A DNA stretch of 64,000 nt from Escherichia coli (GTDB taxonomy: Bacteria; Pseudomonadota; Gammaproteobacteria; Enterobacterales; Enterobacteriaceae), in assembly GCF_044324875.1 (NCBI RefSeq), contig NZ_CP172185.1; one strand, 5' to 3'. Of the stretch, positions 61,191 to 61,420 are shown piece by piece. Numbering within the stretch: the first letter of the stretch is position 1; every line of letters begins with the position of its first letter. The notes below the pieces were generated by a model, which made no database searches, had not been told where the DNA came from, and saw only the letters and a list, made by a program, of their open reading frames with translations. The translations under genes and the position numbers were made by a program.

Positions 61191-61420
61191 CCTCTACCTC
61201 TCTACACAATCATCTTTCAGGTCAGTAATGGCGCGGCTTTCAGCGGGGTAGAGGGCTTTTTTGGCCCTCTACCTGCCATCTACCACCCCCTCACAAATGC
61301 CCTGAATTATGGTAGAGGGTGTAGAGGGCTTTTAAGTACCTTCTACCTGCCATCTACCCAATCTATCAACATGAAATATATGTAATTATTTTCTTAAGGT
61401 AGAAGGGGTAGAGGGCTTTT
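61191..61420. repeat. Iteron cluster, candidate replication origin of the island
   Basis: GGTAGAGGGC in six copies (both orientations; GGTAGAGGGCTTTT x3, CTACCTGCCATCTACC x2) immediately downstream of the primase gene. Confidence 0.6.

Follow-up and report, generated by a model that had tools for sequence, protein, structure and literature searches.

In this study, the 286-bp intergenic region at positions 61143-61428 of the window (the whole 64-kb stretch of Escherichia coli DNA analyzed here) was recognized as the candidate origin of vegetative replication in a Gram-negative phage-inducible chromosomal island (PICI) that belongs to the EcCICFT073 family, and we put the probability of this reading at roughly 0.87. 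The reading is based on the enrichment of short repeats (iterons) in the region, its residence in a PICI, its homology to the origin of EcCICFT073 and the conservation of the repeat cores. It is further based on a concerted base change at the repeat sites, the domains of the adjacent initiator protein, the distant relatives, the AT-rich composition of an internal stretch and the absence of competing features. An origin of the SaPI/PICI layout had been proposed in the original prediction, and the comparison supported it: the iterons lie 3' of the initiator gene, at least two of them stand in opposed orientation on each side of the AT-rich stretch, and the region is homologous to that of EcCICFT073.

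Results

The 286-bp gap contains 11 GTAGA/TCTAC half-sites in both orientations, against 0.2 expected from their frequency in the rest of the 64-kb window (Poisson P ~1e-15), and the hexamer GGTAGA occurs in it nine times against 0.06 expected (P ~2e-17). A pattern search located exact copies of GGTAGAGGGC at 61247-61256 (plus strand), 61264-61273 (minus) and 61407-61416 (plus), and copies with one mismatch at 61275-61284 (minus), 61311-61320 (plus), 61320-61329 (plus) and 61349-61358 (minus). All matches at up to one mismatch in the 64-kb window (7/7) are thus confined to 170 bp (61247-61416), and shuffled sequence gave a mean of 2.5 such matches per whole 64-kb window. The repeat cluster described in the original prediction is therefore real, but the number of six copies given there was too low, since seven copies at one mismatch or less and 11 GTAGA cores are present; moreover, GTAGA, the core common to all repeats, is shorter than the 10-mer from which that count was made. 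In the repeat-family analysis, GGTAGAGGGCTTTT and CTACCTGCCATCTACC were each found in two copies (exact ones in the case of GGTAGAGGGCTTTT) and TGTAGAGGGCTTTT in one, and the longer repeat units recurred with a period of 73-75 bp, apart from a single interval of 87 bp.

The pri-rep initiator gene lies on the minus strand (61429-63177), so that, read on the gene strand, the gap begins right behind the stop codon of this large open reading frame. A distance of 12 bp separates the stop codon (61429-61431) from the end of the closest iteron, in agreement with the earlier statement that the cluster directly follows the primase gene. The first iteron set, adjoining the stop (61398-61416, plus strand), consists of GGTAGAAGG and GGTAGAGGGC as direct repeats 9 bp apart. 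It is followed by a 38-bp AT-rich stretch (61360-61397), a putative unwinding element by its composition, with ~20% GC in a 40-bp window and 13% GC in the lowest 30-mer. Beyond this stretch lies a pair opposed to the first set, GGTAGATGGC and GGTAGAAGGT, 11 bp apart (61338-61358, minus strand). The remaining sites comprise the pair GGTAGAGGGT and TGTAGAGGGC, 9 bp apart (61311-61329, plus strand), the pair GGTAGATGGC and GGTAGAGGGC, 11 bp apart (61264-61284, minus strand), a lone GGTAGAGGGC (61247-61256, plus strand) and a distal pair, GGTAGAGG and TGTAGAGAG, with a spacing of 8 bp (61191-61207, minus strand), about 50 bp upstream of the start codon of the next gene. On the gene strand, the order of half-sites is accordingly two, the AT-rich stretch, two opposed, and then two, two, one and two in alternating orientation, which makes a lopsided split of 2 versus 9 around the AT-rich stretch. 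The region also holds a 22-bp conserved block that carries no iteron, CAGTAATGGCGCGGCTTTCAGC (61223-61244). In an eight-sequence alignment covering both E. coli iteron classes, 20/22 positions of this block were invariant, and the spacers that flank it drift. It could serve as a promoter element, for priming or for the binding of a host factor.

Several other kinds of feature were sought in the same region. No intrinsic terminator was predicted in the gap, and DnaA boxes, IHF sites and GATC motifs were searched for in the region without a match. The copies at 61247-61256 and 61264-61273 form a perfect 10-bp inverted repeat with a 7-nt spacer, which folded as single-stranded DNA with -11.4 kcal/mol (z = -3.1). 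This inverted repeat (61247-61273) was rejected as a terminator; it has no T-run on either strand and equals two opposed iterons. A packaging site at the cluster was likewise rejected, as the cosN-like sequence of the island lies at 59381, 1.8 kb away.

The pri-rep gene encodes a protein of 582 aa with matches to phrog_864, TIGR01613 and the Pfam families D5_N, DUF5906 (the P-loop helicase core) and Pox_D5 (C-terminus, residues 485-575), as in the P4-family primase/helicases. The helicase core matched that of the SaPI5 initiator PriRep5 (PDB 7OLA) with E = 4.5e-15. Moreover, about 90 C-terminal residues (486-577; 61447-61722, minus strand) gave a phmmer match with E = 9.4e-7 to PDB 1KA8, the C-terminal domain of phage P4 alpha, and were assigned as a putative winged-helix origin-binding domain. 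This assignment rests on the match to 1KA8, because an AlphaFold model that covered the C-terminal 105 residues and drew on an alignment of seven sequences was poor (pLDDT 50.6). Pri-Rep is thus predicted to be a superfamily 3 (SF3) helicase with a C-terminal winged-helix DNA-binding domain, and in the Rep family of the SaPIs it is the C-terminal winged helix that recognizes the iterons. The alignment further showed that the ~250 N-terminal residues of P4 alpha are missing from the PICI proteins (582-584 aa); these residues make up the zinc finger/Toprim region, which is kept in P4 alpha itself (777 aa) and in a 794-aa relative from Morganella. A Pfam search with residues 1-140 of Pri-Rep returned no match. 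The label "primase" may not be apt for these PICI proteins.

The closest comparison is with EcCICFT073, which was located in the CFT073 genome. The two Pri-Rep proteins are 94.5% identical, and 98.9% over the helicase core; the gap of 286 bp aligns end to end with one of 288 bp in EcCICFT073, with the half-site cores aligned. A pri-ori fragment of EcCICFT073 kept a temperature-sensitive plasmid, and the delta-pri and delta-ori versions failed or were much weaker (Fillol-Salom et al. 2018, PMC6092414). When the published primers were mapped on CFT073, the pri-ori insert was found to begin shortly before pri and to reach about 20 bp into the next gene, and the delta-ori insert to end 4 bp past the pri stop codon. 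It follows from this mapping that the "ori" tested in EcCICFT073 is the exact homologue of 61143-61428, and that the pri-delta-ori deletion removed the entire gap, iterons and AT-rich stretch together. Both islands share the gene order, 11 half-sites with an invariant GGTAGA core at nearly equal offsets, the AT-rich stretch behind the first two sites, and conserved gap ends. However, they differ in four respects. The base two positions past the core is G here (GGTAGA-nG) and A in EcCICFT073 (GGTAGA-yA), and one site is flipped, giving a 2+2 arrangement here versus 1+3. Where the putative recognition helix begins, A542 and S545 stand here in place of N and G, and the downstream cargo comprises terS and a ProQ/FinO gene here but capsid and decoration genes in EcCICFT073.

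Conservation was examined among 80 close matches from an IMG/VR scan together with copies from E. coli genomes, which gave 42 distinct versions of the gap. Across these versions, the mean entropy was 0.19 bit in the columns of the half-site cores and 0.67 bit elsewhere (Mann-Whitney p = 3e-11). The relatives fall into two classes with the same site positions. The class of the window has the motif GGTAGA-n-G-G, with GGTAGA-n-G at nearly all sites, and the class of CFT073 and IHE3034 has GGTAGA-y-A-G, with GGTAGA-y-A at all sites and G at the second flanking base of none. Such a parallel shift of one base position in ten or eleven distinct sites would be expected if the sites co-evolved with a single binding protein. 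In the C-terminal domain, consistent differences between the classes were seen at two positions only, A542N and S545G (window numbering), which, judging from winged-helix topology and the low-confidence model, may form the start of the third helix of the domain. The iteron class tracks these two residues in 78/79 loci. The exception, L016 (IMGVR_UViG_3300029303_000153), combines the C-terminal motif of the window (A..S) with GGTAGA-yA iterons of the CFT073 type and stems either from natural recombination or from chimeric assembly of a metagenome. Should it be functional, it would argue against residues 542 and 545 setting the specificity. The association between residues and iterons is best taken as a lead, as it perhaps reflects one evolutionary split and concerns tightly linked DNA, the residues lying within ~120 bp of the origin. 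The iteron class of the window was also found in the O157:H7 island, which appears to be EcCIEDL933, an element that has been named as an experimentally characterized E. coli PICI.

A scan of genome contigs with the initiator gave a single relative, from Morganella, which is too few for statistics. The initiator of this element is 52% identical to that of the window, and its iterons read TGTTCAT. A further relative was Escherichia phage vB_KppS-Ant (LR881103.1), with an initiator of 583 aa that is 41% identical. This induced "phage" of 16.5 kb is probably a satellite, and its single PICI-style origin directly after the initiator gene (3253-3560) contains exact TGTTCACC iterons. In both relatives, the repeat cluster stands directly behind the initiator stop codon, and its first two sites are followed by an AT-rich stretch. 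Furthermore, the site order is two, AT-rich, one, three, two (+1), one, two in vB_KppS-Ant and two, AT-rich, one, three, two, one, two in CFT073; orientations match and offsets are nearly equal between these two, and the window departs from them by one flipped site. As the same layout occurs with different iterons in vB_KppS-Ant, the layout outlasts the iteron sequence, which points to an array bound by the initiator.

The element that surrounds the candidate origin is a Gram-negative PICI of ~10.6 kb at the cspD-clpS attachment site, cut by the end of the window. The gap was matched at 100% in E. coli TUM1886, where an element of ~10.6 kb lies between yljB/cspD and clpS, is bounded by the direct repeat ATGATAGTTAT and begins with an integrase followed by a small HTH gene. 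In the 100%-identical record, the genes int, alpA-type HTH, DUF4222, pri-rep, ssb, perC and Nu1-like terS were found. In the window, ATGATAGTTAT is present as the att core at 57136-57146, where the island ends on the clpS side, the other end falling outside the window, and both this sequence and the cspD-clpS insertion site have been published for the PICIs EcCIIHE3034 and EcCI18098. The element thus combines int, alpA, the att core at cspD-clpS, a Nu1-like terS and a cosN-like site, all of them features of PICIs. The first gene downstream of the candidate origin (60885-61142, minus strand) encodes 85 aa and belongs to phrog_1231; ssb comes next, and the genes downstream of pri-rep further include a PerC-family regulator, a ProQ/FinO protein and the Nu1-like small terminase. 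The cosN-like sequence AGGTCGCCGCCC (the reverse complement of GGGCGGCGACCT) at 59381-59392, which has the Nu1-like small terminase gene (58604-59188) on one side and the ProQ/FinO-family gene (59476-60156) on the other, is probably where the island is packaged from.

Copies of the gap with at least 95% identity were present in 8 of 5,426 complete E. coli genomes. In E. coli LH50-c (NZ_CP100500.1), three places match the origin region, which indicates that related PICI replicons coexist in one cell.

Discussion

Origins of the SaPI/PICI type have been described as lying immediately 3' of rep or pri-rep, with ~6-12 short iterons of penta- or hexanucleotide core and an AT-rich center flanked on either side by two or more iterons, which are opposed in orientation. 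Every trait of such origins that can be read from sequence is present here, namely the position, the short iterons, the opposed sites around an AT-rich stretch, the SF3 initiator with its putative winged-helix C-terminus and the residence in a PICI. The origins of SaPI1, SaPIbov1 and SaPI5 share with the present region the place 3' of the initiator, the 6-12 short iterons and the AT-rich center. Their initiators, the self-loading helicases Rep and PriRep, share the SF3 helicase and the C-terminal winged helix, and the core of PriRep5 is homologous to that of Pri-Rep. The present region differs from the SaPIs in that the iteron sequences are unrelated, the split around the AT-rich stretch is asymmetric (2 versus 9) rather than even, the host lineage is Gram-negative and the initiator has a C-terminal domain of the P4-alpha type.

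The iterons of plasmids such as pSC101, R6K, P1 and RK2 are direct tandem repeats of 17-22 bp bound by Rep proteins of the WH1-WH2 type, and these origins rely on DnaA boxes and on host DnaB/DnaC. The likeness to origins of the plasmid RepA family is limited to repeated initiator-binding sites (putative ones in the present case) beside an AT-rich unwinding stretch. Here, in contrast, the initiator itself is a helicase. With half-sites of 6-9 bp, in both orientations, and no match to DnaA, IHF or GATC motifs in the region, a plasmid RepA-type origin was ruled out.

In the mechanism that we propose, induction by a helper phage would lead to production of the island's Pri-Rep, which would act as an SF3 self-loading helicase-initiator. 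Its C-terminal winged-helix domain would recognize the eleven GGTAGA(n)G(G) half-sites, of which two would be bound between the stop codon and the 38-bp AT-rich stretch and nine beyond it, the flanking pairs being opposed. Multimeric binding would then melt the AT-rich stretch, and helicase rings would load there without a separate loader. For this island, we infer that Pri-Rep binding, melting of the AT-rich stretch and initiation all take place within 61143-61428.

The nearest model for another role is phage P4, whose initiator has a homologous C-terminal origin-binding domain and whose short, two-orientation iterons also lie directly downstream of the initiator gene. Ziegelin et al. and Yeo et al. 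reportedly found that type I iterons are bound by this domain of P4 alpha. In P4, the annotation of the cluster directly behind alpha (4291-4590) is crr, and the origin, a separate cis region, lies 4.5 kb away. By this analogy, together with the homology of the two C-terminal domains, the cluster might be a cis-acting accessory region that the initiator binds and replication requires, although the start of replication would lie elsewhere. We consider this highly improbable. A second GTAGA cluster was searched for across the complete 10.6-kb island and was not found, the EcCICFT073 fragment that sustained plasmid maintenance carried only pri-rep and the gap, and the AT-rich stretch lies inside the cluster, between opposed iterons. 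Moreover, the arrangement is not an ori/crr pair of the P4 type, because the iteron differs (the P4 type I iteron TGTTCACC is absent from the window, where the repeats read GGTAGAG(G)), the sites form a single cluster and the initiator is without the N-terminal primase part (zinc finger/Toprim) of P4 alpha.

An equally slight chance is given to the reading that the repeats serve mainly as operators, either for autoregulation of Pri-Rep or for control of the downstream ssb-perC-terS operon, and not as an origin. Plasmid initiators bound at iterons often repress neighboring promoters, and the position of the distal pair ~50 bp upstream of the next start codon would suit such a role. A promoter scan did give one weak sigma-70-like match inside the cluster on the gene strand, but 0.7 such matches were expected by chance; furthermore, eleven sites over 225 bp with an internal AT-rich stretch exceed the needs of an operator, and the homologous region acts as an origin in EcCICFT073. 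It is possible that the distal sites have a side role in downstream transcription, which would be compatible with an origin. It is scarcely conceivable that the repeats are a chance or decaying feature devoid of function, or part of an unannotated gene or RNA. A 70-codon ORF (61173-61385, plus strand) does overlap the cluster, but a coding role was rejected, as the longest closed frame in the relatives varies from 27 to 76 codons and no frame is kept. An Rfam search of the region at E<=1 gave no match, and clustering at P ~1e-15, with conserved cores and drifting spacers, speaks against chance. In 10/10 records inspected, the gap is intergenic and unannotated. The origin reading therefore withstands the objection, raised beforehand with the original prediction, that the repeats might be coding in relatives, since the region is intergenic in all annotated relatives and holds no conserved ORF.

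A more tentative proposal, which we regard as rather doubtful, is that the iteron classes are orthogonal groups of replicon specificity and that the eleven-site layout could correspond to an initiation complex of fixed stoichiometry, such as a double hexamer. In this proposal, GGTAGA-nG may pair with A542/S545 and GGTAGA-yA with N/G, and a two-residue change in the recognition helix may have come first, followed by a concerted one-base change in all eleven sites. If true, related PICIs could reside in one cell without cross-firing of their origins.

With the origin placed at 61143-61428, the replicon of this island is pinned down and the element is confirmed as a PICI. As none of the records inspected annotates the region, the result is of use for annotation. 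Little else is added, since the type of origin, its position and its initiator were already described and tested for EcCICFT073 in 2018. The layout conserved across unrelated iteron sequences and the two iteron classes that track two initiator residues may serve as a natural experiment on the evolution of initiator-origin specificity in satellites, though one of modest interest.

In the surroundings of the candidate origin, the ~0.9 kb from the clpS-side att core to the first recognizable gene (58068-58442) holds only short overlapping ORFs (57147-58060) and carries no annotation in the matching record. Beyond clpA, a second tyrosine integrase gene and a YfjI-family gene (~52500-53900) adjoin tRNA-Ser(GGA) at 53809-53896, which suggests another integrated element at this tRNA gene.
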